Under the pieces are notes generated by a model. That model was not told the DNA's origin. It saw only the letters and a program-made list of their open reading frames with translations, and made no database searches. Shown piece by piece: positions 585 through 29,700 of a DNA stretch of 32,000 nt (positions are counted from its first letter, which is position 1; each line of letters opens with the position of its first letter). The stretch spans positions 2,100,001 through 2,132,000 of the forward strand of contig NC_003272.1 in assembly GCF_000009705.1 (NCBI RefSeq), read 5' to 3'. The stretch is from Nostoc sp. PCC 7120 = FACHB-418. GTDB lineage: Bacteria > Cyanobacteriota > Cyanobacteriia > Cyanobacteriales > Nostocaceae. Position numbers and translations under genes: made by a program.

Positions 585-791
585 CACAACCCTAAGTTAT
601 AAACTACGCTCAGGGATTATATCCTTTCGTTAAGTGATTGTACAAAATACTGAAAAATCTAGCACAATAAAATTACAAGTTTTCCCTAAAATTCTTATTG
701 CCCAAAACTTAATAGATTTTCTTTGGTGTGGTGTGGTTCGTGTTGATTCACAACTAGACTTACTTACCCGCAAACATTGAGAGGTGTCCTT

Positions 792-1340
792 ATGGATGCT
801 AATAAACTTCTAGATCTATATAACGCAGGAGAACGAAAATTTCACAGAGCAAATCTGCATCAAGCTAACCTTTATGCTTTTGATTTGAGGGGGGCAAATT
901 TTGCCGAAGCTGATTTAAGTGGAGCAAACCTTAGTCAAGCTAATTTGAGCGGATGTAATCTCAGTCGTGCTAATTTAACTGATGCAGACTTGAGTGGAGC
1001 TAACTTGAGTGGAGCTAACTTGAGTGAAGTCAACTTCATCGGTGCAGACTTAATTAGCACCAATTTAAAACAAAGCAATCTCAGTCGAGCAGATTTACGG
1101 GGTGCCAATTTAATTTTGGCAAACTTATTCAGTGCTAACCTGAGCGAAGCGGAAATGAGCGGTGCTGATTTAAGTGGCGCTAATCTCAAACAAGCAAACT
1201 TAATTGGTAGCAACGTCATGGAAGCAGAATTGAGAGGGGCAAATTTCTCTGGGGCTGTAATTACAGAGCAAGAAATCACTGGTAGAGTTTTGCGCTTAGG
1301 TCTCTCTCACAGATGGATAACTTGGGCTGGTTGTCATTGA
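792..1340 (+). CDS. Pentapeptide repeat protein
   Basis: Almost the whole ORF is A(D/N)LSGANL-type pentapeptide repeats. I prefer the ATG at 792 over the track's TTG at 777, because GAGAGG lies 7-13 nt upstream of 792. Confidence 0.85.
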   Translation: MDANKLLDLYNAGERKFHRANLHQANLYAFDLRGANFAEADLSGANLSQANLSGCNLSRANLTDADLSGANLSGANLSEVNFIGADLISTNLKQSNLSRADLRGANLILANLFSANLSEAEMSGADLSGANLKQANLIGSNVMEAELRGANFSGAVITEQEITGRVLRLGLSHRWITWAGCH

Positions 1341-1450: not shown

Positions 1451-1801
1451 TTAGTAAACCAAAGGAGTTGCACCGCGCATCTGACGGAAAGAGTTGATGC
1501 AAGCAGGACAGTCGCAACCAAACAAGGTAATTGCTATATCGCTTTCTGCATCGTTGAACTCCAACATAGGAGCATCTTCTTGGGAAAATTCTATTTCCGG
1601 CTCATAGTTAGGCACTTGGGCTAAAACAGAAGCCCTAGCACAGACCAAACCAACCTTATGTTTATTTCTGATACAAGATAACTTATCTGTGTTTTTGACT
1701 TCTGGCTCAATTGCTTGTGCATGATTGACCATAACTGTCATAGACAGAATAGATGCTATCAAAACGGGGCTAGAAATTAGAGTTAGGATAAATTTGTTCA
1801 T
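1451..1801 (-). CDS. Small secreted Cys-motif protein (Sec signal peptide, C-terminal GCDCPAC)
   Basis: N-terminal hydrophobic signal with an AQA|I cleavage-like site, and AAGGAA 8 nt upstream of the ATG. It is a paralog of 3488..3760, sharing PVLIAS(I/M)L in the signal and GC(D/N)Cx(A/N)C near the C-terminus. Confidence 0.7.
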   Translation of the reverse strand: MNKFILTLISSPVLIASILSMTVMVNHAQAIEPEVKNTDKLSCIRNKHKVGLVCARASVLAQVPNYEPEIEFSQEDAPMLEFNDAESDIAITLFGCDCPACINSFRQMRGATPLVY

Positions 1802-1966: not shown

Positions 1967-2115
1967 GTCAGTTGTCAGTTGTTGAAAGGATCTGGTCTGG
2001 TTTAATGCCTCATCCCCTCATGGGTGGTTTTTAGGTGTCTTCTTGAAAAGTTGCTCCTCTTGGGTAGAAACCAAGACCGCACTTTTCGCTTTGCCACTGA
2101 CCACTGACTACTGAC
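1967..2115. repeat. STRR-like heptamer arrays in inverted orientation
   Basis: GTCAGTT GTCAGTT GTTG at 1967-1984, and CCACTGA CCACTGA CTACTGA at 2094-2115 (reverse-complement sense). A degenerate copy of the downstream hairpin (catcccctcatgggtggttttt) lies at about 2010-2032. Confidence 0.6.
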
Positions 2116-2147
2116 AAAAACTCCATCCCCTGGTGGGTGGAGTTTTT
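2116..2147. terminator. Bidirectional intrinsic terminator downstream of the binding-protein gene
   Basis: AAAAA-CTCCAtCCC-ctggt-GGGTGGAG-TTTTT. The GC-rich stem is flanked by an A-run and a T-run, so it reads as hairpin plus U-tract on both strands. It lies 86 nt past the stop at 2233. Confidence 0.55.
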
Positions 2148-2232: not shown

Positions 2233-3213
2233 CTACTTTGGGGTTTTGGGTTGAAATATCAAGTATGTACCTCCCAAACCTTCCACAATTGTGCGTGTGT
2301 TAGCGATCATCATATTTTGATAAGTGTCACCATCGCTTGTTGGTTCTCCCAATCCTTGAGTGTATAGTTGCCGTTCTGACAATTTTACTTCCGCCTCAGT
2401 AGCAATAGATTCCATCACTTTTAATGTATCTGTCATATCTGCAAAGATTGTCGGTACATTAGATTTTTGGATATACTGAGTCAGATTTTTGATTCTCTGA
2501 TCTGTTACTTGTTCTTCAATGCCAATAGTAGTGGAGGGAATGCCATAGGCATTTGTGTAATAATTTATTGCATTATAAGTTGTTACTAATTTGCGCTTTT
2601 CTTTGGGAATAGTGGCAATTTTTAATTTAATCCAATTATCTAGTTGAGTTAATTCGGTTTTAATTTTTTTTGTATTATCACCATAAATGGAGGCATTACT
2701 GGGTTCCAACTTTCTCAGGTTGCTATTAATAACTTCCAACATCTTTATAGCATTTTTAGGATTATGCCAAACATAAGGGTTATTTACTCTACGAGAATTT
2801 ACAGGGATTTGCTGTGGCACAGGAACTGCAATTTGACTCACAGCAATTTTAGGTGCAGAGTTTTTGGTGGTATTTATTAGCTTGATTAATTCTGACTCAA
2901 GATTATAACCGTTATAGAGAATTAGATTAGCCTGCTCAAGAGCATTTTTATCTTCTGCTGTTGCTTGATAAAGCTGAGGTGCTTTGTTAGGGGGAATTAA
3001 GCAGATGAGATTAATCGTATTTTCAGCAATCTGTCTAGTTAAATCACACAGTACACTTGTGGTTGCTACAACTTTCGGGAGATTTTCATCAACCACATTG
3101 GCAGTCTGGGTAAAAGATATACTTGTAGTTTGATTTCTACATCCAACAAATGTAGTGGTGAAAATAGTTAAAATTACTCGTAACAAATTGTTGGCTAATA
3201 CTTTTTTTGGCAT
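2233..3213 (-). CDS. PsaA/MntC/ZnuA-family (TroA-fold, cluster A-I) substrate-binding lipoprotein with non-canonical ligand positions
   Basis: Lipobox-like FVGC (Cys25). Long collinear similarity, from memory, to S. pneumoniae PsaA: KVVATTSVLCDLTRQIA, ANLILYNGYNLE, KLVTTYNAINYYTNAYGIPS, GDTYQNMMIANTRTIVEGL. No adjacent permease or ATPase genes. Confidence 0.8.
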   Translation of the reverse strand: MPKKVLANNLLRVILTIFTTTFVGCRNQTTSISFTQTANVVDENLPKVVATTSVLCDLTRQIAENTINLICLIPPNKAPQLYQATAEDKNALEQANLILYNGYNLESELIKLINTTKNSAPKIAVSQIAVPVPQQIPVNSRRVNNPYVWHNPKNAIKMLEVINSNLRKLEPSNASIYGDNTKKIKTELTQLDNWIKLKIATIPKEKRKLVTTYNAINYYTNAYGIPSTTIGIEEQVTDQRIKNLTQYIQKSNVPTIFADMTDTLKVMESIATEAEVKLSERQLYTQGLGEPTSDGDTYQNMMIANTRTIVEGLGGTYLIFQPKTPK

Positions 3214-3443
3214 TATTTACTGTTGTTGACTGGATAAAAATAATAGATATTTGTTAATCAAATTATACTAATTTTTAGTTGGCTGGAAGATCAAATGATT
3301 CCCTATTAGCTATTACCTATAGGGCTACCATTTGATTCTTATATTACAGTCGGCTTGTGGTGGGCAATGCCTACTCTAGTAGTATTTAGATTATGCAATA
3401 GTCAAATCAGATTTTTGTAGGAGTCAATTGAATATAAGAATAA

Positions 3444-3464
3444 AGGCACAGCAATGCTGTGCCT
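3444..3464 (-). terminator. Intrinsic terminator after the 3488..3760 gene
   Basis: Perfect 9-bp stem AGGCACAGC-aat-GCTGTGCCT. On the minus strand it is followed by TTATTCTTATATT, 24 nt past the stop codon. Confidence 0.55.
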
Positions 3465-3487
3465 CCAAAAATTTATGCTTTTTCACT

Positions 3488-3760
3488 TCAAAAATTACCA
3501 GTGGGTAACTTCCCTTGTAATAACTGAAGCTTAGTTTGGACGCAGTTGGCGCAGTTACAACCCAATTGATCGATGATGGGATTAGATGAGCGAGTTAAGT
3601 GTAGAGTGGTCGATTGGGAAATGGGCTGTGTGGACACTGCTGTAATGGCTTGTGTATCAAGTACAGAGTTGATACTAACTGCCTTTGCTGGGTTAGCTAC
3701 CAGCAACATAGATGCGATCAGTACAGGACAGGCCAGTAAAACTAGTTTGACTAAGTACAT
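3488..3760 (-). CDS. Small secreted Cys-motif protein (Sec signal peptide, C-terminal GCNCANC)
   Basis: Signal peptide MYLVKLVLLACPVLIASMLLVANPAKA|V. Paralog of 1451..1801, with DNA-level similarity in the signal-peptide region. Confidence 0.65.
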   Translation of the reverse strand: MYLVKLVLLACPVLIASMLLVANPAKAVSINSVLDTQAITAVSTQPISQSTTLHLTRSSNPIIDQLGCNCANCVQTKLQLLQGKLPTGNF

Positions 3761-3838: not shown

Positions 3839-4900
3839 TTAATTACGTCCAAATCCTTGACCCCGTAAAATCTTTGACCAAATGAGTAATTCTCCTTTTT
3901 CACCACCTGCGGCAATTAGCTTACCTTGGGGATGCCATGCTAGGGCGGAAAATCCATCGGCTACACCCGTAAGAATTTGGGATACTTCCTTGGCTTTGTT
4001 CCACAAACAAAGCCAGCCATCAGTTGCAGCCGAGGCTAGTAAGAAGCTTTTAGGTGCAAAGGCGATCGCATTAATCACACCTACATGATTAGTTAACACT
4101 CGCGCTTCCCATCCCAAGTTCTCATCTTCTAGCTTTTCCCACGCCACAATACCTTCCACACTGGCAGAGGCTAGTATTGGTGCGCCTAGTTTGGTGGTTG
4201 CTTCTGACCATGCTAGTTGGCGAATCTTACCGGGAAAGCCACGCATGACCCAAGGGTCGGGATTATTCCATTCCAACACGGTGACGCTACGATCCATGTT
4301 GCCTGAAGCCAGGAATTTACCATCAGGCGACCAAGCCATAGTCACACTCACAGTAGGCATATTGAGAATATATGGTTCTTCATCCCAGTCTTGGGCGTGC
4401 CAAATTTTGATGCCTTTGTTACCACCAATTGCTAGGTATTGACCATCAATCCGCCAATCAATACTCAATGCGGATGAGTCGGCAAAATTCAGGGTAGTGA
4501 CAACCTCACGAGTATCAGCGTCCCAAATTTGTACATAACGCCCCAAACTAAAAGCCAACTGGTTGCTAGCGTGACTCCAAGCTAACTTGTCTACCCATGC
4601 AGGTGCATTTTCTAAGGTGGCGATTAATTCCTGTCCTTGCCAGATTTTCACCCGTCCATCTTGTCCACCAACGGCGAGAAATTTGCCATCAGGGGAGAAA
4701 GCGAGACAATCGACAGACTGGCCATTACCAGCTTGCAGCGTTGTTAACTCACCATCCTGCCACAGTACTACTTCCCCAGCCGCCGAAGTTGCGGCTAGAG
4801 TATTCCCTTGTGGAGACCAGGCGATCGCTGTTACGTATTCTGCCAGCATCCCTGAATAGTGTTCTTCAAATTCCTTATTTTTGCTGCTTGTTAGGTTCAT
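3839..4900 (-). CDS. WD40 repeat (beta-propeller) protein, cytoplasmic
   Basis: About seven repeats of the SPDG(K/Q)(F/Y)LA..G.DG.(V/I)K(I/L)W type, e.g. LAFSPDGKFLAVGGQDGRVKIW and MAWSPDGKFLASGNMDRSVTVL. No signal peptide. Confidence 0.85.
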   Translation of the reverse strand: MNLTSSKNKEFEEHYSGMLAEYVTAIAWSPQGNTLAATSAAGEVVLWQDGELTTLQAGNGQSVDCLAFSPDGKFLAVGGQDGRVKIWQGQELIATLENAPAWVDKLAWSHASNQLAFSLGRYVQIWDADTREVVTTLNFADSSALSIDWRIDGQYLAIGGNKGIKIWHAQDWDEEPYILNMPTVSVTMAWSPDGKFLASGNMDRSVTVLEWNNPDPWVMRGFPGKIRQLAWSEATTKLGAPILASASVEGIVAWEKLEDENLGWEARVLTNHVGVINAIAFAPKSFLLASAATDGWLCLWNKAKEVSQILTGVADGFSALAWHPQGKLIAAGGEKGELLIWSKILRGQGFGRN

Positions 4901-5010: not shown

Positions 5011-5982
5011 TTAAGCAAAACAAGCGAGAAAATCTTGCTTGAGTTGGGCTTCATCTAAATTGCGACCGATGAATACTAGTTCGTTTTTGCGTTTTTCGTT
5101 GGGTTTCCAGAGGCGATCGGGTCTACCATCGAATATCATATGCACCCCTTGGAAGACAAATCTATTATCTTCCCCAGCAATATTTAATATGCCCTTCATA
5201 CGGAAGATATCAGTCCCTTGGGTACGCAACAATTCGGAAATCCAAGCGTTTAATTTTTCCCCGTCGAGTTCACCCTCTTGTACTAAAGCCACAGAAAAAA
5301 CAGTATCATCATGTTCGTGGGCATCTTCACCTAAAAAATTGGGATCTATCTCTAAAGCACGATCTAAATCAAAGGCTTTCACACCCAACAAAGCGTCCAT
5401 TGCTAACTCAGAATTACGAGTACGGTAGATTTTGGCGATCGCATTCATCGACCTAATCCGCTTTTCCAATTCATCTAATTCTGATGGGGTAACTAAATCC
5501 GTTTTATTAAGTAAAATCACATCAGCAAAGGCAATCTGTTCTTGGGCTTCGTCTGCATCCCAATGTTGCCAAATATGCTTGGCATCTACCAGCGTTACAA
5601 CTGCATCTAAAGACAGTTGACTTTGCATATCCTCATCTACAAAGAATGTCTGAATCACTGGTGCAGGGTCAGCTAATCCAGTAGTTTCAATTACTAGATG
5701 GTCAAACTTATCACGGCGCTTCATCAAATTGCTAATGATCCGGATTAAGTCCCCACGAACGGTACAACAGATGCAGCCGTTGTTCATCTCAAAAATTTCT
5801 TCATCTGCATCAATAACTAATTGGTTATCAATGCCTACTTCCCCAAATTCATTAACGATGACAGCAACTTTTTTGCCATGCTCGTAGGTGAGGATATGGT
5901 TGAGTAGGGTTGTTTTACCTGCGCCTAAATAGCCAGTCAGAACAGTAACGGGAACTGAATCTGTAATTACGTCGGCCATCAT
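5011..5982 (-). CDS. COG0523-family G3E GTPase (CobW/YjiA/ZigA-like putative zinc metallochaperone)
   Basis: Walker A GYLGAGKTTLLN, the CxCC metal motif GCICCT, ETTGLADP, NKTDL, and a CobW-C-like C-terminal domain. Confidence 0.9.
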   Translation of the reverse strand: MMADVITDSVPVTVLTGYLGAGKTTLLNHILTYEHGKKVAVIVNEFGEVGIDNQLVIDADEEIFEMNNGCICCTVRGDLIRIISNLMKRRDKFDHLVIETTGLADPAPVIQTFFVDEDMQSQLSLDAVVTLVDAKHIWQHWDADEAQEQIAFADVILLNKTDLVTPSELDELEKRIRSMNAIAKIYRTRNSELAMDALLGVKAFDLDRALEIDPNFLGEDAHEHDDTVFSVALVQEGELDGEKLNAWISELLRTQGTDIFRMKGILNIAGEDNRFVFQGVHMIFDGRPDRLWKPNEKRKNELVFIGRNLDEAQLKQDFLACFA

Positions 5983-6010: not shown

Positions 6011-6026
6011 GGATAATCATTATCAC
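6011..6026. promoter_or_regulatory. Fur-family (Zur-type) operator candidate
   Basis: GGATAATCATTATCAC. The core GATAAT-C-ATTATC (6012-6024) is a perfect 6-1-6 palindrome and matches 14 of 15 positions of the classic TGATAATNATTATCA box. It lies 30-42 nt upstream of the COG0523 start codon and overlaps a plausible -10 (GATAAT). Confidence 0.55.
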
Positions 6027-10787: not shown

Positions 10788-11690
10788 CTAACTTTTGGCA
10801 AAACGTCGGACAGCAAATAAGCTACCCATTAATCCTACTGTTGCACCAAAGCTTAACAAAATTAAAGGTAGTAGCAAAACCTGTGTGGCCGTGAGTTGTA
10901 AACCATTGCTAATAAATTGAATAAATTCTGGTTGATTGGTGAGTAACTTCCCGGTAAACTGTTGGATTACAGATATAAAACTCCAAGCGATCGCACCACC
11001 AAATAAACCAAAAGCTATCCCCTGTAAAATAAACGGTAGATAAATCCAGGCCGAAGTTGCTCCCACTAACTGCATAATTTCAATTTCCCGCCGACGTGCC
11101 ATCACAATTAGACGAATAGTTGTTGTAGTGACAGCGATCGCTGTTAAAGTCAAAATCATTGTGATTGTCAGCGTCATCCAATTGAGTCCTCGATGCAACT
11201 GGGCGATGCGTTTAACCGCCTCATCGATATACTGAACCGTATCAACTCCCTGTAATTTAGCCAATTGAGTTGCTAAAATCGGCACAGACTGAGAGTTACG
11301 TGCTTTGACCTTAATCTCATCCACTAAAGGATTTTCCCCTAGCTGTTGTGTAGCACCTTCAATATCAGCAATTCCTAGTTCTTTAACTAATTTAGTCCAG
11401 GCTTGCTCTTTAGTAATAATTTGCATCCCTACCACATCCGGCATTTGCACCACAAACGGTTCAATAGTTTGCGCTGACCTACCAGAATCAAGATAAACAG
11501 ATACTTCTAACTGGCTACCAAACTGATTGAGCAGCTTTTCTACTTGCCAAGAAGTTTGCAAACTCAAGCCGAATAAAAACAGTAATACTGTAACAGTACT
11601 GACGGCAGCCCAATTCATCCAACCACCGCGCAGCAAACCCAAGAAGGTTTCCTTCAGTAGATAGTCAAGTTTCGTGAGAAATTTAAACAC
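10788..11690 (-). CDS. ftsX: Cell-division ABC-type permease FtsX
   Basis: 300 aa. One N-terminal TM, a periplasmic domain of about 100 aa, then three C-terminal TMs. The N-terminus LKETFLGLLRGGWMNWAAV is typical of FtsX. Confidence 0.75.
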   Translation of the reverse strand: MFKFLTKLDYLLKETFLGLLRGGWMNWAAVSTVTVLLFLFGLSLQTSWQVEKLLNQFGSQLEVSVYLDSGRSAQTIEPFVVQMPDVVGMQIITKEQAWTKLVKELGIADIEGATQQLGENPLVDEIKVKARNSQSVPILATQLAKLQGVDTVQYIDEAVKRIAQLHRGLNWMTLTITMILTLTAIAVTTTTIRLIVMARRREIEIMQLVGATSAWIYLPFILQGIAFGLFGGAIAWSFISVIQQFTGKLLTNQPEFIQFISNGLQLTATQVLLLPLILLSFGATVGLMGSLFAVRRFAKS

Positions 11691-20425: not shown

Positions 20426-20983
20426 TTAATAGCAATAATCACCGCCGCTATTAGCCCTATTACGCTCTTTAGCTGTACGCATTGCTCCCAAAATTGTCGA
20501 AACATAGACACAACGCTTAATCATGCCTCTAGACTTACTTGATAAAGTAATCCTGCCTAGAGGTGGTTGTTTAACACTTCCTCGATAATCAAATTGAATT
20601 CGCCTCACATTGTTTGATTGCTGTAAAGTGCTTTCTCCATCTAAACGCACACGAGAATCTAGATTATTCCAATTAGCATTCGTAGGGCTGACACTAGCAG
20701 GATGAACTGCCCATTGAACTATACCATTTTGTTCGCGGAAACTAGCTTGCCACGTCAATTTTTCCTTACTAGCTTGGCTTTGGGCTTGTCGTATGGCATT
20801 GTGAACTTCGTATTGAGCTTTGTTGAGGCGTTGAGTATCTACAAAAGTTAACCAGTAAGGTAATGCTAAAGCTGCTAATATCCCAACCATGAGAATAACT
20901 GCCAATATCTCTGGAAGTGTAAAACCCCGTTCATTTTGGCAATTTAAGCCATTTTTATTATCAAATAGAGATAGTAAAAGCAC
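20426..20983 (-). CDS. hpsH: Prepilin-type N-terminal cleavage/methylation pseudopilin (HpsH position)
   Basis: NERG|FTLPEILAVILMVGILAALALP, with Glu at +5. Paralog of 24238..24933. Confidence 0.7.
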   Translation of the reverse strand: MLLLSLFDNKNGLNCQNERGFTLPEILAVILMVGILAALALPYWLTFVDTQRLNKAQYEVHNAIRQAQSQASKEKLTWQASFREQNGIVQWAVHPASVSPTNANWNNLDSRVRLDGESTLQQSNNVRRIQFDYRGSVKQPPLGRITLSSKSRGMIKRCVYVSTILGAMRTAKERNRANSGGDYCY

Positions 20984-21005
20984 CTGGATATATGTTGTGA
21001 ATATT

Positions 21006-22007
21006 TTAACTGCCAGAAATTGCTGATAACTGTGGATTGAGAGATTTTGTCCTCATTTTTGCTAGTAATTCTGTAGATAAACCAGCAGGTAATATAATAA
21101 TTATCAGAGCTTTAAATAAAAGTTTTAATGTAGAATTTATCCGCCTCATTCTAGAAGAATCATACAGAAAATATTGCCAAATAAATTTAACAGCAGCTAG
21201 ACCTTTACTTCGACTGTAAGGCTTTTGCAGGGCTTTACAAGCTAAATATTTGTAAAGATTAGCTATACTCAAATGCAAAATATGATTACCAATCGCAGGT
21301 CTTGCTTGATAAGCTTTTTCTAGTACTTGCTTACAAGCTTTTTCCTGTCTCACCAGATTAGAAGATAGAGAATTACTACTAACCCGATATAATATTTGGA
21401 CATAAGGAACAGCCACAAAAGAATATTTATTAGCTAATCTTAGCCACATATCCCAATCTTGAGCGGCCTTTAGTGATTCATCAAATCCTCCCAATGCAAT
21501 TAAAGCTTCTTTGCAAATTAAAGGATTAGAGCCATTTTCTAAAAAATTGTTGATAAACAACTTTTTATAGACATCTCCATTAAGTGTTACACGTCTACCA
21601 GAAATTAAAAAATTACCATCTTCATCAATATAATCAGTCCAGCTATATGCAACATGAAAACCAGGATTGTTATGTAAAGCCTCTAATTGTGACTCTAGTT
21701 TATTAGGTGTCCAAATATCATCTGCATCTAGGAAACTGATGAATTTTCCCACTGCAAGATTTAAACCCCGATTCCGGCTAACATTTCCTCCAGCATTTTC
21801 AAAGGAAAATATCTTAATCCTCGAATCTTCAATTTGAGAAACAATGTCTAATGTTGCATCTTGTGAACCATCATTAATGACAATTAATTCAAAATCAGTA
21901 AAAGATTGATCTAAAACCGAATCAATTGTTTTTTTGATAGTTTTTTCACAATTATAAGCTGGGATAATTACAGAAATTATTGGTAAATCAAAATTGGATT
22001 CAGTCAT
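21006..22007 (-). CDS. hpsG: Family-2 glycosyltransferase (HpsG position)
   Basis: ISVIIPAYNCEKTIKKTIDSVLDQSF.DFELIVINDGSQDAT and the DADD motif (FLDADDIW). Confidence 0.7.
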   Translation of the reverse strand: MTESNFDLPIISVIIPAYNCEKTIKKTIDSVLDQSFTDFELIVINDGSQDATLDIVSQIEDSRIKIFSFENAGGNVSRNRGLNLAVGKFISFLDADDIWTPNKLESQLEALHNNPGFHVAYSWTDYIDEDGNFLISGRRVTLNGDVYKKLFINNFLENGSNPLICKEALIALGGFDESLKAAQDWDMWLRLANKYSFVAVPYVQILYRVSSNSLSSNLVRQEKACKQVLEKAYQARPAIGNHILHLSIANLYKYLACKALQKPYSRSKGLAAVKFIWQYFLYDSSRMRRINSTLKLLFKALIIIILPAGLSTELLAKMRTKSLNPQLSAISGS

Positions 22008-23007
22008 TGTTTAAACTTATATCTTCATTGGTTAAATTATTGAAATAAAACATGAGTGAGTATATAGGACTCAAAAGACTACCCAAATAAAAATTGAACT
22101 CTACAAGTGCGACTATATCTCCCTTGAGATTATTTTTGTACTTCATTATGTGGTGAAATAGTCTGCGAATATTGCCTAAAATTGTTCTCAGCAAAATTAT
22201 CGACAATTCACCTTTTTTAGCATTAATTAGTCTGAGTTGAAAAATACATAAACCACAACCACGAGCGACATTAACTAAGTAACTTGTTTCAAGTCGTCCG
22301 TGGGGTATTTTATGATAGATTTCCATTTTGGGGTTATACCAAATTTCCCAACCAGCTTTATATATATATAAGAGAACCTCTGTATCTTCTCCACCAATCA
22401 TTAATTTTCCAATTCTCCCTTTAAAAACTAACTGTTGCGGTACGCTTTCTCGCCAAGCTTGTTTACGGATAACAAGAGCAGCACCAGGGGGTAGTTTTAA
22501 ATTTTCAGCATCAAAGATATAAGCTTTTTGACCATGTTCTCTAATAGCTAAAAAAGCCTGAATTTGGGAAAAATTATCTGGTGGTGTAACTTCAAAATCA
22601 CCATGTATTTGACCACTCCATGCACCGGCGCGGGGATGTTCTTCGCCAAAATTATAAGATTGTAAAACCCAATCAGGCGCAGCTAAGTTATCATCATCTA
22701 AAAAAGCAACAAATTTACCTTGGGATTCCTTGATTGCTCTGAGTCTTCCATAGGCTAATCCCTGTTGTGTTTCTAGAAAATATTTCAACTGACATTGAGT
22801 AAATTTTTTTTGGTAATCACTTACTACTTCGGGTGTGCGATCGCTGCTATTATTATCAATAACGATGACTTCCCAACGTAGGTTTTCTGTACCTGTTTGC
22901 GCCAATAATCTGTCTAAAACTTGGGGTAAACGTTCTGCACCATTCCATGTGGGAATAGCTACGGTAAAATCAACCGTTTCAATTATCTCTTGTAGTTCTT
23001 GTTGCAT
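22000..23007 (-). CDS. hpsF: Family-2 glycosyltransferase (HpsF position)
   Basis: TVAIPTWNGAERLPQVLDRLLAQ...VIVIDNNSSDRT and FLDDDN. Tandem paralog of 23029..23997. Its stop overlaps the hpsG start by 8 nt. Confidence 0.7.
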   Translation of the reverse strand: MQQELQEIIETVDFTVAIPTWNGAERLPQVLDRLLAQTGTENLRWEVIVIDNNSSDRTPEVVSDYQKKFTQCQLKYFLETQQGLAYGRLRAIKESQGKFVAFLDDDNLAAPDWVLQSYNFGEEHPRAGAWSGQIHGDFEVTPPDNFSQIQAFLAIREHGQKAYIFDAENLKLPPGAALVIRKQAWRESVPQQLVFKGRIGKLMIGGEDTEVLLYIYKAGWEIWYNPKMEIYHKIPHGRLETSYLVNVARGCGLCIFQLRLINAKKGELSIILLRTILGNIRRLFHHIMKYKNNLKGDIVALVEFNFYLGSLLSPIYSLMFYFNNLTNEDISLNND

Positions 23008-23028
23008 AATCCCAGCTTTCTCAATTAT

Positions 23029-23997
23029 TTACTTACCACTTTTAGTTAAGTACCCATTTTTCCACAGATAGAAAGGACTAATTAGGCTACTGAAAAACAG
23101 TTCTGTTTCACAAGCTATGACTAAATCAGTTTTTATCTTGGTTCCGTACTTAAGTAGTTGTAAAATAATCTTTCTGGTATCATTTATCATGTATGCAACA
23201 AGGACAAATGGTTTGTAATATCCTTGAACATTTGTTGTCCTGGTAACATACCGACTCAAACCAATCCCTCTAAAGAAGGGAATTAAATATTCTTTTTTTA
23301 ATCTAGAGCTTGGTATTCTATGATATATTTCCATCTCTGGGTTATACCAAACTTCCCAACCCGATTTTTGCAGGTAACACAGCATTTCTAAATCTTCCCC
23401 AGTCAGCATATTACCTGCAACTCTACCAGTTAAAATTGGCTGTTCTGGTACACTCTCTAACCATGCTTCCCGGCGGACAACCAGTCCAGCAGAGGGGGGA
23501 AGAAGTTTTTTTCTCGGCTCGTAAAATAGAGGTTTATTACCGCGTTCTGTAATTGCTAAAAAAGGAATAATACTCTTAAAGTTTTCTGGTGGTTCTACCT
23601 CCCAATCCGGGTGTATTTGGCTACCATAAGCCCCTGCTTTGGGGTACTTTTGAGCAAAAGCACAAGCGGCTGCTACCCAAGTTGGGATGGGGTAGTTATC
23701 GTCATCTAAAAAACCGATTAATTTACCTGAAGCAACTTCTACACCTTTTTTTCTGGCATAGGCTGCACCTTGTTTAGCTTCAAAGTAGTATTTTAAAGGA
23801 TAGGAGCAATGCCAATTTTCTTGGTACTGCTGTACAACTTGGGCTGTATTGTCAGTGCTGTTGTTATCGACAACAATAATTTCCCAGGAAATATTTTCGG
23901 TGTTAATTTGGTTTCGCAGCCGTTCTAATAATTCTGGCAAACGATTCGCACCATTGTAAGTCGGTATAGCTATAGTTAAATCAAGATTTGCAGTCAT
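23029..23997 (-). CDS. hpsE: Family-2 glycosyltransferase (HpsE position)
   Basis: TIAIPTYNGANRLPELLERLRNQ...IIVVDNNSTDNT and FLDDDN. Confidence 0.7.
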   Translation of the reverse strand: MTANLDLTIAIPTYNGANRLPELLERLRNQINTENISWEIIVVDNNSTDNTAQVVQQYQENWHCSYPLKYYFEAKQGAAYARKKGVEVASGKLIGFLDDDNYPIPTWVAAACAFAQKYPKAGAYGSQIHPDWEVEPPENFKSIIPFLAITERGNKPLFYEPRKKLLPPSAGLVVRREAWLESVPEQPILTGRVAGNMLTGEDLEMLCYLQKSGWEVWYNPEMEIYHRIPSSRLKKEYLIPFFRGIGLSRYVTRTTNVQGYYKPFVLVAYMINDTRKIILQLLKYGTKIKTDLVIACETELFFSSLISPFYLWKNGYLTKSGK

Positions 23998-24143
23998 TTT
24001 TTGCAGTTTGTACTTAGATTGTAGTTTCTGGTTGGGTGTGTCTGGATGATGTTAAAGACTTAACCGAGGTTATTTTAGGCTGAACTGCAACTGATGGCTA
24101 GTAAATATTTAAGCTAAATTAGTTAAAAGTTAAAATTAAAAAT

Positions 24144-24180
24144 CTGCACCTTATATTTCAATTTTGCTTTGCAGGTGCAG
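24144..24180 (-). terminator. Hairpin plus T-tract between the hpsD-like and hpsE-like genes
   Basis: CTGCACC(24144-24150)/GGTGCAG(24174-24180). On the minus strand it is followed by ATTTTTAATTTTA. The long 23-nt loop lowers confidence. Confidence 0.35.
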
Positions 24181-24237
24181 GTTATTGTACAGTATTCTTA
24201 CTAAGATTTAAGAAAATTTGCTACATCATCCACTTAT

Positions 24238-24933
24238 TTAATTACAATTGTTATCTTTCTCGGTCATTGTTGCACCCAGAATCGTTTTTAAGATAACGCA
24301 ACGCTTAACGTTATTATTTGCTACAACAATTTTGATATGTGGTATTGCAGTGGAGCCAGTTGGTGCTGGCGGATCAAATTCTAGACCTGTTAGACTACCT
24401 ATGTAGTCGAAAGTAATTGTTTGTGGTGTGTTTAAATAAGTGGAACTTGCATTGACAGCAGTACTAACTTTGTTTTTGCTCGTGAGATTGGTCAAGAGTT
24501 TGATTTGTCCAGTAGAGCGGATGTCTAAATCTTCACCTAGAACTTGCCAGCGTTTTTTAGATGGGGTGTCAACAATAGTAGATGCGGCTTCAGAATCAGG
24601 ATGAATAACAATCTTAGGAATTTGGCTTTCAACTTTAAAACTGACACTATATTTTAGTTTTTGTCGTTTAGCTTGTCGCTGTGCTTCTTGTATGGATGCT
24701 AAAACAGCATCGTTAGCTTTGTTGACTCTTTGACGATTAACGAAAGCAGACCAGCCAGGAAGAGCGATCGCTGCTAATATACCTACCATCATCACTACTG
24801 CAATCAATTCTACTAAACTAAAGCCGGAATCTGATTGAGTGTATATTCCAAACTGGCGATTAGGCAGACATAAAGATTTGATTATGCTATTTTTCCTGTC
24901 GATATTGAACGGATGTAAACGTGTTTTCTTCAT
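24238..24933 (-). CDS. hpsD: Prepilin-type pseudopilin (HpsD position)
   Basis: SDSG|FSLVELIAVVMMVGILAAIALP. The predicted leader is unusually long (37 aa) if the annotated ATG is used. Confidence 0.7.
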   Translation of the reverse strand: MKKTRLHPFNIDRKNSIIKSLCLPNRQFGIYTQSDSGFSLVELIAVVMMVGILAAIALPGWSAFVNRQRVNKANDAVLASIQEAQRQAKRQKLKYSVSFKVESQIPKIVIHPDSEAASTIVDTPSKKRWQVLGEDLDIRSTGQIKLLTNLTSKNKVSTAVNASSTYLNTPQTITFDYIGSLTGLEFDPPAPTGSTAIPHIKIVVANNNVKRCVILKTILGATMTEKDNNCN

Positions 24934-24970
24934 GATCTACTGCCTTAAATTACGCTATTGTTTTCGGCAT

Positions 24971-25993
24971 TTACTGAGTAAATAAATATCCACGTCCTTG
25001 TACTCGTATACTTGCATTTGGAAAATAAGCTCTTTTGTTATCGGCATAATTGAGGTTATTGCTTTGTAGGCGGGCGATCGCATTACCTCTCAAAAATACC
25101 TGTGCCGTAGTGTTAACTCTGTCAACACAGGCATAAAAACTCGTCATTTTAAACGTATCGCGGGTATTAAAATTAGTTGTATCTGGAGCTACCAACGTTG
25201 AGCCAGTAGGACAGGTAATCTTTGATGGTGGTATGATTAGTGGTGAGTTTGGTATTGTCTGGTCAATATAATCAACTAAAACTACAGGCGCTCCGGGAGT
25301 GACATTATTCACTACATCTGCTCCATTAGTATCTTTAGTAGTGTATTGGCTGAGTCTTTTCCAGGCGTTCATCTTTTCATGGATAGTACCTGCGCCATCA
25401 AGGCTGAATAGTGCAAAACCTTTACTTGGGCAATAATCATTACTGATATATTTGCCTGTATATCCATCGCAAGTTACACCACTACTAGCCGTTGTCAGCA
25501 CACCATCCCTAATCTGCCACCTAGCAATACGAGCAGCATTAGACCAGTTAGTATTGCTGTCTTTGATTAAATAGTAAGCAACCAATGAATACACATAAGT
25601 ATCATCTTTTTCACCGGCTGTAACTGTAATGATGTCTTCAATTAGTTCTCTTTTCCAAAAAACTAGGACAGGAACTCTATCTGTTGAGGTTGAACTAGGT
25701 AATTCATTTCTAATAGCATCAATACCAGCGCTATCGTAGATATAGATAGCTTGTTGCAAATCGCGGGCAATGTAATCTACTGCTGCTTGAATTTCTTGTT
25801 CTGAGCTTACCTTTGCCTGTTCTTGTCGGTCTGCATTCATGACGCTGATCATGAAGCCCATTAATGGTGTAATTACCAATACTGCCAAAATCATAGCTAC
25901 CAATAATTCAATCAAGGAAAAACCACCAACTTCCTCTATGAGCTTGGAGCGTTTCAACTGGTTTTGAAGCAGGAATTTTAATGCCCTCATCAT
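24971..25993 (-). CDS. hpsC: Prepilin-type pseudopilin, large (HpsC position)
   Basis: EVGG|FSLIELLVAMILAVLVITPL; 340 aa. Confidence 0.7.
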   Translation of the reverse strand: MMRALKFLLQNQLKRSKLIEEVGGFSLIELLVAMILAVLVITPLMGFMISVMNADRQEQAKVSSEQEIQAAVDYIARDLQQAIYIYDSAGIDAIRNELPSSTSTDRVPVLVFWKRELIEDIITVTAGEKDDTYVYSLVAYYLIKDSNTNWSNAARIARWQIRDGVLTTASSGVTCDGYTGKYISNDYCPSKGFALFSLDGAGTIHEKMNAWKRLSQYTTKDTNGADVVNNVTPGAPVVLVDYIDQTIPNSPLIIPPSKITCPTGSTLVAPDTTNFNTRDTFKMTSFYACVDRVNTTAQVFLRGNAIARLQSNNLNYADNKRAYFPNASIRVQGRGYLFTQ

Positions 25994-26050
25994 ACTCTGG
26001 TTTTCCCTTTAGTGAATATTGATGGATAGATACACATGAGATTTTGCTCA

Positions 26051-26767
26051 TTAATTACAGGCTGTATTCGTCGCCACTCCAAGACGCTGACATAAAGCCC
26101 TAAAGGAAGTACTAGTGCTAGAAATGTCGGTTGTCATTTCGAGTAGTGGTGCTTGCCGATCGCCTAAGTTACCAGTAAATGAATTTTGTGTTTTCTTATT
26201 AGATTGACCAGTACTAGCAGTTCGAGTTTTCGTAAAATCAACATCTGCCCTATAAACTCGAATGGCCAAGCGATAGCCATCATTGGCTGAACTTCCTGGA
26301 ACAGTAATTCGGGCAGCCTGAATGTAATATTCAAATGGTTTGTTCGTACAATCTGTTGTGGTGATATTGCCGGATCTTGTAAAGCAGTACAAGCCACTTG
26401 CCGATGAAGGGAGTGCCATTTTAGTTAAATCGTTAACTAAATAATCTTCTGGTCTCCCCGTGATCGGTGGTGTACCGGCAACATCGGCAATCCGTCTGGG
26501 ATCAGATGTGCTGGAAGCAGCAACTTCAATGGTTTGGCTTGGTGCGGCGATCGCTCCAGTTCTCACACCATCAATGAAGGATTTGGCAGCTTGTGTTGCT
26601 AGTTCCACACGTCTTGCCTGAACACGGGTAGCTGTTGACATCACTAGTACAGGTGCGATCGCTGTTAGCAAAATTGCTACTACGATGATTGCTACCAAAG
26701 ACTCAATGATGGTAAAACCGGAATCACTACAAGAAGTTTTTTGTTGCTGTTTTTTAAGTTTGATCAT
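26051..26767 (-). CDS. hpsB: Prepilin-type pseudopilin (HpsB position)
   Basis: SDSG|FTIIESLVAIIVVAILLTAIAP. AGGTGA lies upstream of the ATG. Confidence 0.7.
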   Translation of the reverse strand: MIKLKKQQQKTSCSDSGFTIIESLVAIIVVAILLTAIAPVLVMSTATRVQARRVELATQAAKSFIDGVRTGAIAAPSQTIEVAASSTSDPRRIADVAGTPPITGRPEDYLVNDLTKMALPSSASGLYCFTRSGNITTTDCTNKPFEYYIQAARITVPGSSANDGYRLAIRVYRADVDFTKTRTASTGQSNKKTQNSFTGNLGDRQAPLLEMTTDISSTSTSFRALCQRLGVATNTACN

Positions 26768-26797
26768 TGCTCATCACCTACTTTGAGAATTTGATTC

Positions 26798-29700
26798 TTA
26801 CGAGCAAGAACCACGTTGATCTGCATCTATGGCATTTGTATCGTCTGCGGCTTTCTTGGCACACAACAGAATTCTCACCCAAGGATCATCTCTACCAACT
26901 TCTCGGAAGAACTCATCAGGCAAATCATCGGGTATTGTGACTAATTTCTGGGCTAATAAGTCAGGCGATTGAGATAGTAACGCCACATCATAACCCCATT
27001 GCCGCAGAGGAGGTAGGTAGTAGGGAACTGTACCTCTATCGCCAGCGCCAAAGTTATTTATTTGATAGGCGCTACCTGAAAATACAGGCATAAATGGTGC
27101 AGTAGCATAAGTGCTACGTTTAACTTGATAAAAAGCCCCGTTGATTTTGAGTGCTGTTTCGGTAGCAGCAGTATTCCAATTTTCAATCAAGCGTACAAAG
27201 TTGTGTAAACCACCATTATCTTCCGCCCCACGAGTTGGGCTAGTTGTTTTAGGAACTGCGGCTGGGGTGTCTCCAACTGCGGCAATTACGTTGACAGTCG
27301 TTGCTGTGGCTTCTTGTAACCAATTACCATGCTTTCCAGCTTTGACAAAATCGTTATCTGGAACCTCAGGAGTACCAAATGGTCTGTTGTGTTGGAACAC
27401 AAAATCATAACGAATGTTGTTACCAGAAGCAGTTCCTTCTAGCCAAGGTATGAAGTAGGGCTGGCCGCTTGCATCTACCCCGTCTTTTGGTAGTGTTGTT
27501 CCTGTTAAAGGCCAGTCAAACTCTGCTATTTTGCCATCACTGGCAACGCCATAAACTTTTAGTGGAGTTGTTATTGCACCAGTATCCAAATTACGTACAA
27601 AGGCAATTCTAGATGGTTTATTTGGGTTAATATCACTGGTATTACAGTCTATTGGCGAACCACCAATGACTCCTGTTTTAATTGATGTTGCTGGTTTACC
27701 AATAATATCTGCTACACCGTTGTTATCTTTATCTCTCCAAGTACTCTGTCCTATGGCTTGTGTTGGGCAGGCATTTTTAATTGTCCAATTTCTAGGCGCA
27801 TCGCAAGTACTAGCGTAACAAACTTCCAGTAATAGCTGTTTAGCCCGAATTTTTCGTACAATTGGGGTGACAAAGTTGTTGAGATAGGAACTTCCTTGGA
27901 ATCCTGTTGTTGCATCTAAATCTTTGGGAAAGGCTGGAAAATTTCCATTGCTATCGGCGGAGGGATTAAACCAATTGGCAACTGGTACAAAAGAGTTTTC
28001 TGTGGAGAAAGTCCCGGCAGTTGCATAGTTAATCGGACTAGTAGGAACTGTACTTTGGATAAGCTGCCAATCATGGTCTGCTTCGTTGCGGAAGCCAAAT
28101 CTAAAGTTATTAGAAAGTACAGTCAGAGAATCTGCTAATACCGCAGCAGAGCGCCATTGATCACCAGTTGTACACTGCGGTAATCTAGGGTCGCCTGGAC
28201 GACAAGCAAAGTTAGTATTTAAGCCGGTGCGGCTGTAGAAATTGCCCCAATCAGCATCTAATGCTGTGTTAAATTCCTCTTGAGTGTGAAGATTAAAGTC
28301 ACCCTTAATATAGGCAGGCAAATTACTAGCTAAAATCAGTCCCTTCTCTGCGTCTCGATAGGTATTGCTGTCATTACGGGCAATTTTTTGACCGTTAATG
28401 AGCATAATGGCATTAGGACGACGATTAGGATCAAGTCTGTAATCTACGGCACTCTCTAGCCTCTCACTTTCAGTGGGAGCATTTGGATCTGCTGCCGCAC
28501 TTAAATCTAGTAGTGCATCATCACGAGTAGCGTAGATAATACCGCTATTGGGTAATAAATATTCCTGTGCTGGTGTGGTGGTACCGATTGTTTTTCTACG
28601 CAGCTTATTAATATCTAAGACAGTGGCACGGATTTCTAAAGGTTTTCTGTTTCTTCTAAATCGATCATAATTTCTACTCCCAGTCGTAATATCAGTTGCT
28701 TGAATTTGTCTGGGGTCTAAAAAAGCAACTTCATAAATAGAGCCATGATCAATGACTGTATCTGTAGGAGTATTCAGAGTACCATCAAAAATTGCCAAGC
28801 CACAAATTGCTGCATCCACAGCAGACTTTTCTGAGAGAGTGCGTTTCGTCGCATCTGTTTTGTTTAAAGCTCTTCTCAGTAATCTATCATCAATTGAACG
28901 TCCATTGGGATAGGTTAAATCTGCCAGATAACTCAGGACACTGCTGTAAGAACTTTCAGTCTTAGTTGTAGGAAAAGGGTAAACTATACCATTGTTGGAT
29001 AAACCACCAGTTGCACCATTAATTGGCAGGGTTGATATATTTTGCGCCGTAGTGCTATTAGTAGGGTCATAATAGCTGCTAACACAAGCAATAGGTGTGG
29101 GACTAGTCTGACTGTAACTAGCAGATTTGTAGTGATAGACGGCTGTTGCCCGCATCCGCAGATATGGTTGATCTGTTGGTTGACGTACTTCATAAGTAAC
29201 GTTTAGTCCATAATCTTTATAAGGTTGAATGGGGCTAGGTACTGAACTGGTTCTAACAGGTGAAAGATCAGGCCAAATTTGCTGGTTAAGTCCAGTAAAG
29301 GTAGTTGACGACAAATTTGTAGCAGTAACAGTATTAGGCAAATAAATTCCCGCGCCAGTTACTACTCGCAAGCCACCGACGGGTTCTTCTGGACTATTTG
29401 GTACTTGGGCTGCTGCTAATTCCCAATCTCCATCTCGGTCTGTACTACCTAAATCTTTCAATGTTTCTACACGACTGCGACGAGTGCGATCGCCATCGCC
29501 ATCATCCCATTTATAGTTACTAATAGTTTGGGTATCATCGGCATTTGGCCCTACAAATGCTCCTTTAGCTTGATCCCACCAAAGTTGAGGTAGGTTGTTA
29601 CCAACGACAGCGCGATCGCCAAAGTATCCTTCTACACCTTGTAATTGTCTTGAAAGTTTACTTGGCTCAGTTGCAGAAGGTCTGAGCTTGTCAGTCCCAT

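Follow-up and report, generated by a model that had tools for sequence, protein, structure and literature searches.

A ZnuA-family lipoprotein of Nostoc sp. PCC 7120 in which all four canonical metal ligands have been replaced

The DNA analysed here, 32 kb of Nostoc sp. PCC 7120 (contig NC_003272.1, positions 2,100,001 to 2,132,000) and referred to as a whole as ‘the window’, carries near one end a gene for a lipoprotein of the ZnuA/TroA family, the cluster A-I substrate-binding proteins. Members of this cluster are regarded as receptors whose ligand has to be Zn, Mn or Fe. In the protein encoded here, which we call simply the SBP (for substrate-binding protein; open reading frame (ORF) 2233..3213, minus strand; all coordinates are window-based), none of the four canonical metal ligands is in place; Gln, Tyr, Tyr and Gln occupy their positions, instead. 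An earlier note on this DNA had drawn attention to the replacement. We describe the locus, the extent of the replacement, its distribution among relatives, and the explanations that might account for it.

Read along the minus strand, the locus begins with a Zur box, followed by all1751 (a COG0523, or cobW, gene), a gene for a WD40 protein, one for a protein of 90 amino acids (aa) with the motif GCNCANC (small90), a terminator-like hairpin, a 274-bp spacer, and the SBP gene. Beyond the SBP gene come another hairpin with a T-run and then the gene for a secreted 116-aa paralog of small90 with the motif GCDCPAC (Table 1). Both of the small ORFs that flank the SBP have a signal-peptide-like N-terminus and a CxCxxC motif, and the earlier description of secreted CxCxxC proteins on both sides holds. 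So does the statement that no ATP-binding cassette (ABC) permease or ATPase gene is adjacent: there is no ABC-3 permease and no ABC ATPase among the Pfam-scanned ORFs of the entire window, and the sole such match is a homologue of the cell-division protein FtsX at 10788..11690. SBPs without a permease or ATPase gene beside them are termed orphans below, and those that have such neighbours are termed operon-linked. From its sequence, the hairpin that precedes the SBP gene would insulate it from the Zur-boxed cobW operon, and the hairpin that follows is the likely 3' end of a monocistronic SBP transcript.

Table 1. Features of the SBP locus, in order along the minus strand. HHHD, His-His-His-Asp at ligand columns 1 to 4; AF2, AlphaFold2; dN/dS, ratio of nonsynonymous to synonymous divergence; nt, nucleotides.
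Feature	Position	Strand	Basis
Zur box TGATAATGATTATCc upstream of all1751	6011..6025		Same site, with identical flanks, in Haas et al. 2009 Additional file 5
COG0523/CobW-family G3E GTPase, all1751 of Nostoc sp. PCC 7120	5011..5982	-	Domain search; published Zur site
WD40 beta-propeller protein without signal peptide	3839..4900	-	Domain search; syntenic in many loci
Secreted 90-aa protein (small90), GCNCANC; C-terminus NPIxDQLGCxCxxC...LQGKLP	3488..3760	-	Final gene of cobW-WD40-small operon
Terminator-like hairpin between small90 and SBP genes; 12-bp stem and T-run	3441..3467	-	Sequence
SBP upstream region; position homologous to Zur box (~3238..3259) has at least 6 mismatches in 14	3214..3440	-	Ortholog comparison
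Orphan ZnuA/TroA-family (cluster A-I) substrate-binding lipoprotein, coding sequence, 326 aa	2233..3213	-	Pfam; PDB phmmer; AF2/Foldseek; dN/dS
Signal peptide and lipobox F-V-G-C; Cys25 codon 3141..3139	3139..3213	-	Sequence reading; family conservation
Ligand-1 region: A78 (canonical second-shell Asp), P79, Q80 (canonical His)	2974..2982	-	Alignment; D78 in 44/44 HHHD relatives
Ligand-2 region: N145-P-Y147-V-W-H150 (canonical D-P-H-x-W-x)	2764..2781	-	Y147 for His; H150 invariant in orphan classes
Ligand-3 region: Y213 (canonical His/Glu), N214 (canonical Asp)	2572..2577	-	Alignment
Ligand-4 codon: Q286 (canonical Asp)	2356..2358	-	Alignment
Hairpin and T-run, ~95 nt past SBP stop; same palindrome flagged on plus strand	2114..2141	-	Sequence
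Secreted 116-aa paralog (FGCDCPAC...) downstream of SBP	1451..1801	-	Bridging homologues P0345, P0346 and the 109-aa ORF of L076

The SBP proves to be what the note took it for, a lipoprotein with the PsaA/ZnuA fold. Residues 48–312 align with the Pfam ZnuA profile (PF01297) from end to end (profile positions 1–263 of 263; E-value 5.3e-67), and the score, 226.5 bits, is far above the gathering cut-off of 29. The N-terminal lipobox, ...TTTFVGC25, by which the protein reads as a bacterial lipoprotein, contains a Cys25 that is invariant in 44 of 44 family members; G21, F22 and G24 are almost so. The AF2 model (pLDDT 72.6, pTM 0.73) has the two alpha/beta lobes and long rigid helix of the cluster A-I fold, with long helices at 152–169 and 171–199, and Foldseek matches it to the solved members TroA, PsaA, MntC, YfeA and AztC with probability 1.00 and TM-scores, normalized to target length, of 0.72–0.81. 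Two further cysteines, C56 and C71 of the N-lobe (SVLCDLT...NLxC; ~3046..3048 and ~3001..3003), are invariant in 44 of 44 family members, and could form a predicted disulfide. To no equivalog subfamily does the SBP belong by score: it falls below the NCBIfam cut-offs for AztC (NF040870, 171.6 against 350), ZnuA (NF007091, 50.8 against 268), EfaA (151.4 against 485), SloC (146.1 against 525) and MntC.

The register of the ligands is firm. When the PDB is searched with phmmer, the top match is PsaA (1psz, 4utp, 3zk7-9; E-value ~1e-37), collinear and of high posterior probability, and Q80, Y147, Y213 and Q286 fall in the columns of PsaA His67, His139, Glu205 and Asp280. A MAFFT alignment (--auto) of the SBP with 150 diverse representatives, one per 50%-identity cluster, gives the same correspondence, and some 130 canonical proteins display H/H/(H or E)/D in these four columns. 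No His, Glu or Asp is restored to any of them by profile alignment, and the spacings between them, 67, 66 and 73 residues versus 72, 66 and 75 in PsaA, are as originally noted.

Canonical sites have four first-shell ligands, His-His-His-Asp for Zn or His-His-Glu-Asp for Mn or Fe, and the SBP retains none. The second shell has gone as well. The Asp of the two D-P-H motifs, present in 44 (D78) and 41 (D145) of 44 HHHD relatives, is A78 at ligand 1 and N145 at ligand 2 in the SBP, and the canonical D214 is N214. The loop that precedes ligand 2 has turned from acidic to basic: FEEDGK in operon-linked forms, it is PVNSRR in the SBP. The His-rich loop is missing, as the note had observed; residues 118–147 contain no His at all, where some operon-linked relatives have from four to eight, or EEDG. 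The mature domain has a net charge of +3 in the SBP, against medians of –6 for operon-linked proteins and +7 to +12 for orphans. Orphans are basic even when they have kept HHHD. The replacement of all four canonical ligands makes canonical binding of Zn or Mn by the SBP very unlikely, as far as sequence can tell. The note had excluded such binding outright, and the disappearance of the second-shell Asp, the acidic loop and the Zur box (below), along with the lack of transporter genes next door, favors its view.

Related proteins hint at what has become of the cavity. In relatives of 62–67% identity, ligand 4 can be Lys (QYYK, QYNK and QYTK, where the letters give the residues at columns 80, 147, 213 and 286), which counts against cation binding in the ortholog group. 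Taken together with the Lys or Arg at ligand 1 that is paired with Glu in sister clades (KHSE, RHSE), this suggests that side chains now occupy the space where metal formerly lay.

The ligand columns vary widely within the Nostocales. Among the 120 best homologues, all of them from this order and 56–93% identical to the SBP, 21 are HHHD, 30 QHSE, 9 KHSE, 7 QYNQ and 2 QYYQ, the last found in two cluster representatives only, and about 30 further combinations occur. On a neighbor-joining tree of 121 sequences, columns 80, 147, 213 and 286 require 19, 6, 14 and 18 Fitch steps, where the median for the mature domain is 9. Column 147 switches solely between His and Tyr, and H150 changes not at all. 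Ligand 2 is His or Tyr in 213 of 213 homologues (two overlapping samples); among the 50%-cluster representatives the exceptions are one Phe and, in two divergent proteins, Asn or Leu. Beyond the window, exact QYYQ occurs in T. variabilis-type genomes, N. parmelioides and A. subtropica alone, and within this clade it is unchanged up to a synonymous divergence (dS) of 0.77. Among relatives of 62–80% identity, column 213 is taken by N, S or T, and column 286 by Q or K. Farther out, across the 50% clusters, nearly all relatives are H-H-H-D, and degenerate sites occur mainly in the representatives nearest to the SBP; the operon-linked cyanobacterial relatives are H-H-H-D without exception. The narrowness of the QYYQ clade and the free variation of columns 80, 213 and 286 rule out Q/Y/Y/Q as a conserved subfamily site, and the idea in the note of a defined Q/Y/Y/Q or ‘Tyr-based’ site shared by a cyanobacterial subfamily is not supported. 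A C-terminal tail, GLGGTYLxF, was considered as a mark of the degenerate proteins and rejected, canonical relatives having it too.

The SBP gene is under selection, of a relaxed kind. Compared with close orthologs, its dN/dS is 0.12–0.20; in the same genome pairs, the values are 0.04–0.06 for cobW and 0.08–0.12 for the WD40 gene. Median pairwise dN/dS (omega) rises from 0.07 for operon-linked HHHD proteins to 0.18 for orphan HHHD proteins, 0.23 for the xHxx class and 0.25 for the xYxx class. Constraint on the orphans is thus relaxed about three-fold, yet is clearly purifying. There are no internal stops or frameshifts in some 95 translated loci. These dN/dS values, and the persistence of QYYQ across four species-level lineages, rule out a pseudogene or decay peculiar to this strain. 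Loss of the ligands is an ancient, clade-wide remodelling under purifying selection, and not decay in PCC 7120. The note had reckoned with canonical ligands in orthologs of sister strains, and with strain-specific decay as their meaning; more distant orthologs at the same position, as in Nostoc UHCC 0702, do retain H-H-H-D, but the decay does not follow.

Proteins with different ligands are positional orthologs of one another, not unrelated paralogs. The order cobW-WD40-small90-SBP recurs in Nostoc UHCC 0702 (HHHD), PCC 7524 (QYTQ), N. parmelioides, A. subtropica and genomes of the T. variabilis type, as well as in many metagenomic loci of all ligand classes. A more distant cyanobacterial contig, L076, has the complete cluster: cobW, WD40, a 109-aa GCDCAGC...LQGKLP protein, an ABC-3 permease and an ABC ATPase, with the permease and ATPase genes diverging from the gene for an HHHD ZnuA that has a Zur-like box. 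A Prochlorococcus arrangement is listed as ‘znuC<>znuA-COG0523-5-WD40’ by Haas et al. 2009 (Additional file 5). The working ZnuABC of PCC 7120 itself, All0833–All0830, is encoded elsewhere in the genome (PMC10957091).

Transporter genes keep company with intact sites alone. In 93 loci, small ABC ATPase and permease ORFs adjoin HHHD proteins only, never degenerate ones. Both ORFs are present beside about 16 HHHD loci and at least one of the two beside 20, and the SBPs concerned are 43–53% identical to the query. An alignment-based metagenome search supplied 80 loci, and a single-protein search of genome contigs, four. Within 4–8 kb on either side of degenerate-site orthologs, no permease or ATPase was found.

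Regulation has changed, too. Zur boxes are recognized by a 15-nt consensus. This agrees with the sites in Additional file 5 of Haas et al. 2009, where taggTGATAATGATTATCcgtat, upstream of the CobW gene, is given as the putative Zur site of all1751 under the annotation ‘COG0523-5-WD40’; all1751 is also counted among the members of the Zur regulon of Anabaena in a review (PMC6103462). The box in the window, TGATAATGATTATCc, lies 40–43 nt upstream of the all1751 start and is kept in five genomes. The SBP gene lacks a box of its own: the best match to a TGATAATNATTATCA-like site in the 274 bp upstream of it has four mismatches and lies off the homologous position. In Nostoc UHCC 0702 and NIES-4103, the start codon of the HHHD ortholog is preceded by a perfect Zur box at a distance of 41 nt, QHSE and KHSE orthologs retain the core AATAATGATTATC at the homologous position, and the window clade has nothing recognizable there. 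In a census of 84 non-redundant loci, in which up to three mismatches were allowed within 70 nt of the start, a box accompanies His at ligand 2 in 43 of 57 loci, and Tyr in three of 27 (Fisher p = 2e-8); 1.3% of random 70-nt windows would contain one by chance. On the tree, Tyr has some seven separate origins at ligand 2, and a box is missing from most of the Tyr clades. A Fur-type box was looked for upstream of the SBP gene by eye, a weak test; the best agreement with the 19-bp E. coli consensus is about 8 of 19.

These comparisons establish the ancestry of the SBP, the loss of its ligands and Zur box, its orphan status and its continued purifying selection. We think it fairly probable, from sequence, that the SBP, a degenerate orphan that stems from a 3His+Asp zinc receptor once under Zur control, is retained in a metal-independent role. 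Its homologue in more distant cyanobacteria is the ZnuA of a complete, Zur-boxed cluster of the form cobW-WD40-small CxCxxC protein-znuB/znuC<>znuA. In the Nostocales, the copy beside cobW-WD40-small is without a neighboring permease and ATPase, and, freed from the transporter, it has changed at about three times the earlier rate. In the PCC 7120/T. variabilis lineage, His has given way to Q80, Y147 and Y213, and Asp to Q286; in the second shell, Asp has given way to A78, N145 and N214, and the acidic EEDG loop to NSRR. The gene has lost its own Zur operator as well, and the terminator-like hairpin separates it from the Zur-controlled all1751 operon. High-affinity capture of Zn(II) or Mn(II) would have been lost in the process. 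A polar hydrogen-bond network of Gln, Tyr, Tyr, Gln and H150 may now fill the former cavity, a part that a Lys/Arg-Glu pair may play in the sister clades, and the protein would be kept for metal-independent binding or docking at the periplasmic face of the membrane.

Several considerations weigh against this interpretation. The phrase ‘metal-independent role’ names no defined mechanism. Ligand 2 hardly ever departs from His or Tyr, no orphan has lost H150, and these residues could be parts of a non-canonical site; with the stability of QYYQ in its clade, they indicate that the region of the old site is still partly constrained. The Fisher test on the association of Zur box and ligand 2 ignores kinship, and 11 of 41 HHHD loci are likewise without a recognizable box, some of them perhaps on account of wrong start codons. 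Transcriptional read-through into the SBP gene from the Zur-controlled all1751 operon is possible, moreover.

Might the SBP still bind metal, only differently? The phenolates of Tyr147 and Tyr213, together with His150 and the amide oxygens of the Gln residues, could make up a site of hard oxygen ligands, suited to Fe(III), as in the Tyr-Tyr-His sites of FbpA/FutA-type proteins, or to weak binding of Zn, with delivery to an ABC-3 importer encoded elsewhere. All 65 replacements at ligand 2 (two overlapping samples) are Tyr, when His has seven single-step neighbors, and one 50%-cluster representative has Phe; Tyr recurs at ligands 1–3 in several clades (YYHN, YYED, YYLD, HYYN); H150 is invariant across the orphan classes; and QYYQ is fixed to dS 0.77. 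His to Tyr is a single transition, however, and mutationally easy, and H150 is present in most canonical HHHD relatives too, and so is not a compensating ligand. Residue 213 is N, S or T, and residue 286 K, in syntenic relatives of 62–80% identity, variation which means that no consistent coordination chemistry has been conserved. Add to this that the acidic first- and second-shell residues have all been neutralized, that no Zur box was found, and that the Fur consensus, on the weak test made, is poorly matched, and a metal site of this kind appears unlikely. It also appears unlikely that the cleft has been re-tooled for a chelate or metallophore, for an oxyanion or neutral polar molecule, or for the Cys-rich C-terminus of a neighboring secreted GCxCxxC mini-protein, which would carry the metal. 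Purifying selection continues without a metal site, as this would predict; the pocket residues of the window clade (Q, Y, Y, Q, H, N, N, A) include no acidic one; two secreted GCxCxxC paralogs, of which small90 is fast-evolving, flank the gene; and members of the same mini-protein family occur in complete znuABC clusters (L076). But cluster A-I pockets are small and rigid, and no metallophore biosynthesis genes were seen in the window. The mini-protein is found beside HHHD SBPs also, and in N. punctiforme NIES-2108 it is unlinked from the SBP. Ligand 4, moreover, is E in QHSE and KHSE proteins, and K or Q in the window clade, and because pocket residues differ between sister clades in this way, no single new ligand fits them all.

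At the other extreme, the SBP might do nothing: a remnant on its way to loss, its ligands replaced by neutral decay. Omega is three to four times that of operon-linked relatives, three ligand columns evolve like surface positions, and operator and transporter linkage have both gone. The PCC 7120 exoproteome supplements that were searched contain no all174x tag, either, but this is weak, the locus tag of the SBP not being established. Against all this, omega is 0.12–0.25, far under 1; full-length ORFs are intact in well over 100 Nostocales genomes and metagenome-assembled genomes, with no frameshift or stop in any locus examined; the lipobox Cys, C56/C71 and many core residues are invariant; and QYYQ has stayed the same over dS 0.77. 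The dN/dS values largely refute this explanation, and we consider it very improbable. A more ambitious proposal, and a doubtful one, is that the orphan SBPs of the Nostocales are an exaptation in progress, in which the cation site has been dismantled, the Zur regulon left, and the cleft made over to recognize another ligand. The new ligand could be an anion or an uncharged polar compound; it could also be the C-terminus (GCxCxxC) of the co-located mini-proteins, which would then serve as proteinaceous zinc carriers. If true, the ZnuA/TroA fold would have its first known specificity for something other than a metal, or for a metal bound indirectly. Descent from a zinc receptor, followed by retention in a metal-independent role, remains the explanation that we favor.

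Comparison with known systems brings out how much of the ordinary apparatus has been shed. The SBP shares the fold of TroA of T. pallidum (1TOA) and AztC of P. denitrificans (5W57; Foldseek TM ~0.72–0.76 for the two), and AztC is its best NCBIfam match, if one far under the cut-off. The ligands of these proteins, His-His-His-Asp, occupy the same columns in the immediate relatives of the SBP; in the SBP, all four have been replaced. The partner of AztC, AztD, is a beta-propeller, and the SBP gene lies near a gene for a WD40 propeller, but, unlike TroA/AztC-type systems, it has no aztAB or znuBC genes adjacent. AztD is not a WD40-family protein (PMC6689063), and the neighboring WD40 protein has no signal peptide and so cannot be an AztD-like donor of zinc in the periplasm; that candidate was ruled out. 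PsaA and MntC are the best sequence matches in the PDB (28–30% identity by Foldseek), collinear with the SBP over the mature domain, and both are lipoproteins, as it is. PsaA has His67, His139, Glu205 and Asp280 and belongs to a psaBCA operon, whereas the SBP has Q/Y/Y/Q and a zinc-type (His-His-His-Asp) ancestry, not one of Mn.

ZnuA proteins (All0833 in PCC 7120, and the ZnuA of Synechocystis) belong to the same Pfam family as the SBP. Operon-linked ZnuA relatives, 43–53% identical, have ABC-3 permease and ATPase neighbors, a Zur box, and sometimes the cobW-WD40-small cluster, whereas the SBP lacks the His-rich loop, the ligands, the Zur box and adjacent znuBC genes, and scores well below the cut-off for the ZnuA equivalog. 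Similar in circumstance is AdcAII of S. pneumoniae, which uses AdcCB and, like the SBP, is encoded away from the permease and ATPase, in a context of zinc starvation. Unlike the SBP, AdcAII is described as retaining a complete zinc site (PMC8416893). By analogy, the Zur-boxed orphans that have kept HHHD probably function as AdcAII does, sharing a permease. All in all, the SBP is an odd branch of a familiar family, though one that can be explained, and demonstrates no new mechanism. In the literature that was searched, we found no paper on the gene (all1747–all1750 and all174x included) or on ligand-less cyanobacterial proteins of cluster A-I, which is not proof that there is none.

What the SBP does bear upon is annotation. 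The automatic label ‘zinc ABC transporter substrate-binding protein’ is very probably wrong for a large clade of Nostocales proteins that are under selection. Its members also fall into a natural series in which to study the joint loss of metal site, regulator site and transporter linkage, from operon-linked HHHD proteins, through orphan HHHD proteins with a Zur box and QHSE/KHSE proteins with a weakened one, to Y147 forms with no box. Since the SBP gene belongs to a model organism, and adjoins all1751, a Zur target that has been studied experimentally, the predictions are directly testable.

The mini-proteins deserve attention on their own account. In members of the family, a signal peptide is followed by a middle part that varies and by a conserved C-terminus, NPIxDQLGCxCxxC...LQGKLP. 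All those found in our search are from Nostocales or other cyanobacteria; neither Pfam nor NCBIfam has a match to them, and their annotation is ‘hypothetical’ throughout. They accompany the Zur-boxed COG0523-WD40 operon and, in L076 (1868–2197), a complete znuABC cluster, and on this last account the family probably belongs to zinc handling. Small90, like the SBP, evolves fast in comparisons between close orthologs. The proposed link of the SBP to the CxCxxC proteins is one of position only; it does not extend to N. punctiforme NIES-2108, where the small protein and the SBP are on separate contigs. Their sequences and settings make the mini-proteins a candidate periplasmic component, and the GCxCxxC...LQGKLP family may be a missing periplasmic part of zinc handling in cyanobacteria.

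Some minor observations may be recorded. If All1750 is the WD40 protein, then it has been detected in two exoproteome data sets of PCC 7120, with no significant change in a zur mutant. G+C-rich palindromes, similar to one another, occur at 2010..2027 and 2122..2137 (CCATCCCCTGGTGGGTGG and CATCCCCTCATGGGTGG), in the spacer between the genes for the SBP and the 116-aa protein; T-runs accompany one of the two on both strands. Bidirectional termination is one possible role; alternatively, the palindromes may be copies of a short dispersed repeat. In several Nostoc genomes (loci L002, L007, L009 and L010), a set of genes on the opposite strand lies downstream of the SBP gene and encodes an NTP_transf_9 protein (not in L010), an HlyD/AprE-like adaptor, and an ABC exporter with cyclic-nucleotide-binding and peptidase-C39 domains. 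This set looks like a secretion system, not the partner of an importer, and is absent from the 2.2 kb of the window beyond the SBP gene. A 114-aa ORF there, 935..1279 on the minus strand, is antisense to a pentapeptide-repeat gene (777..1340, plus strand) and is almost certainly an artefact of the repeats. Far from the SBP, a run of minus-strand genes (20426..31300) includes a 1500-aa ORF without a Pfam match (26798..31300) and four genes for proteins with N-terminal methylation motifs of the type IV pilin/GspH-like kind (20426..20983, 24238..24933, 24971..25993 and 26051..26767). Three GT2 glycosyltransferase genes (21006..23997) separate the first of these four from the other three.

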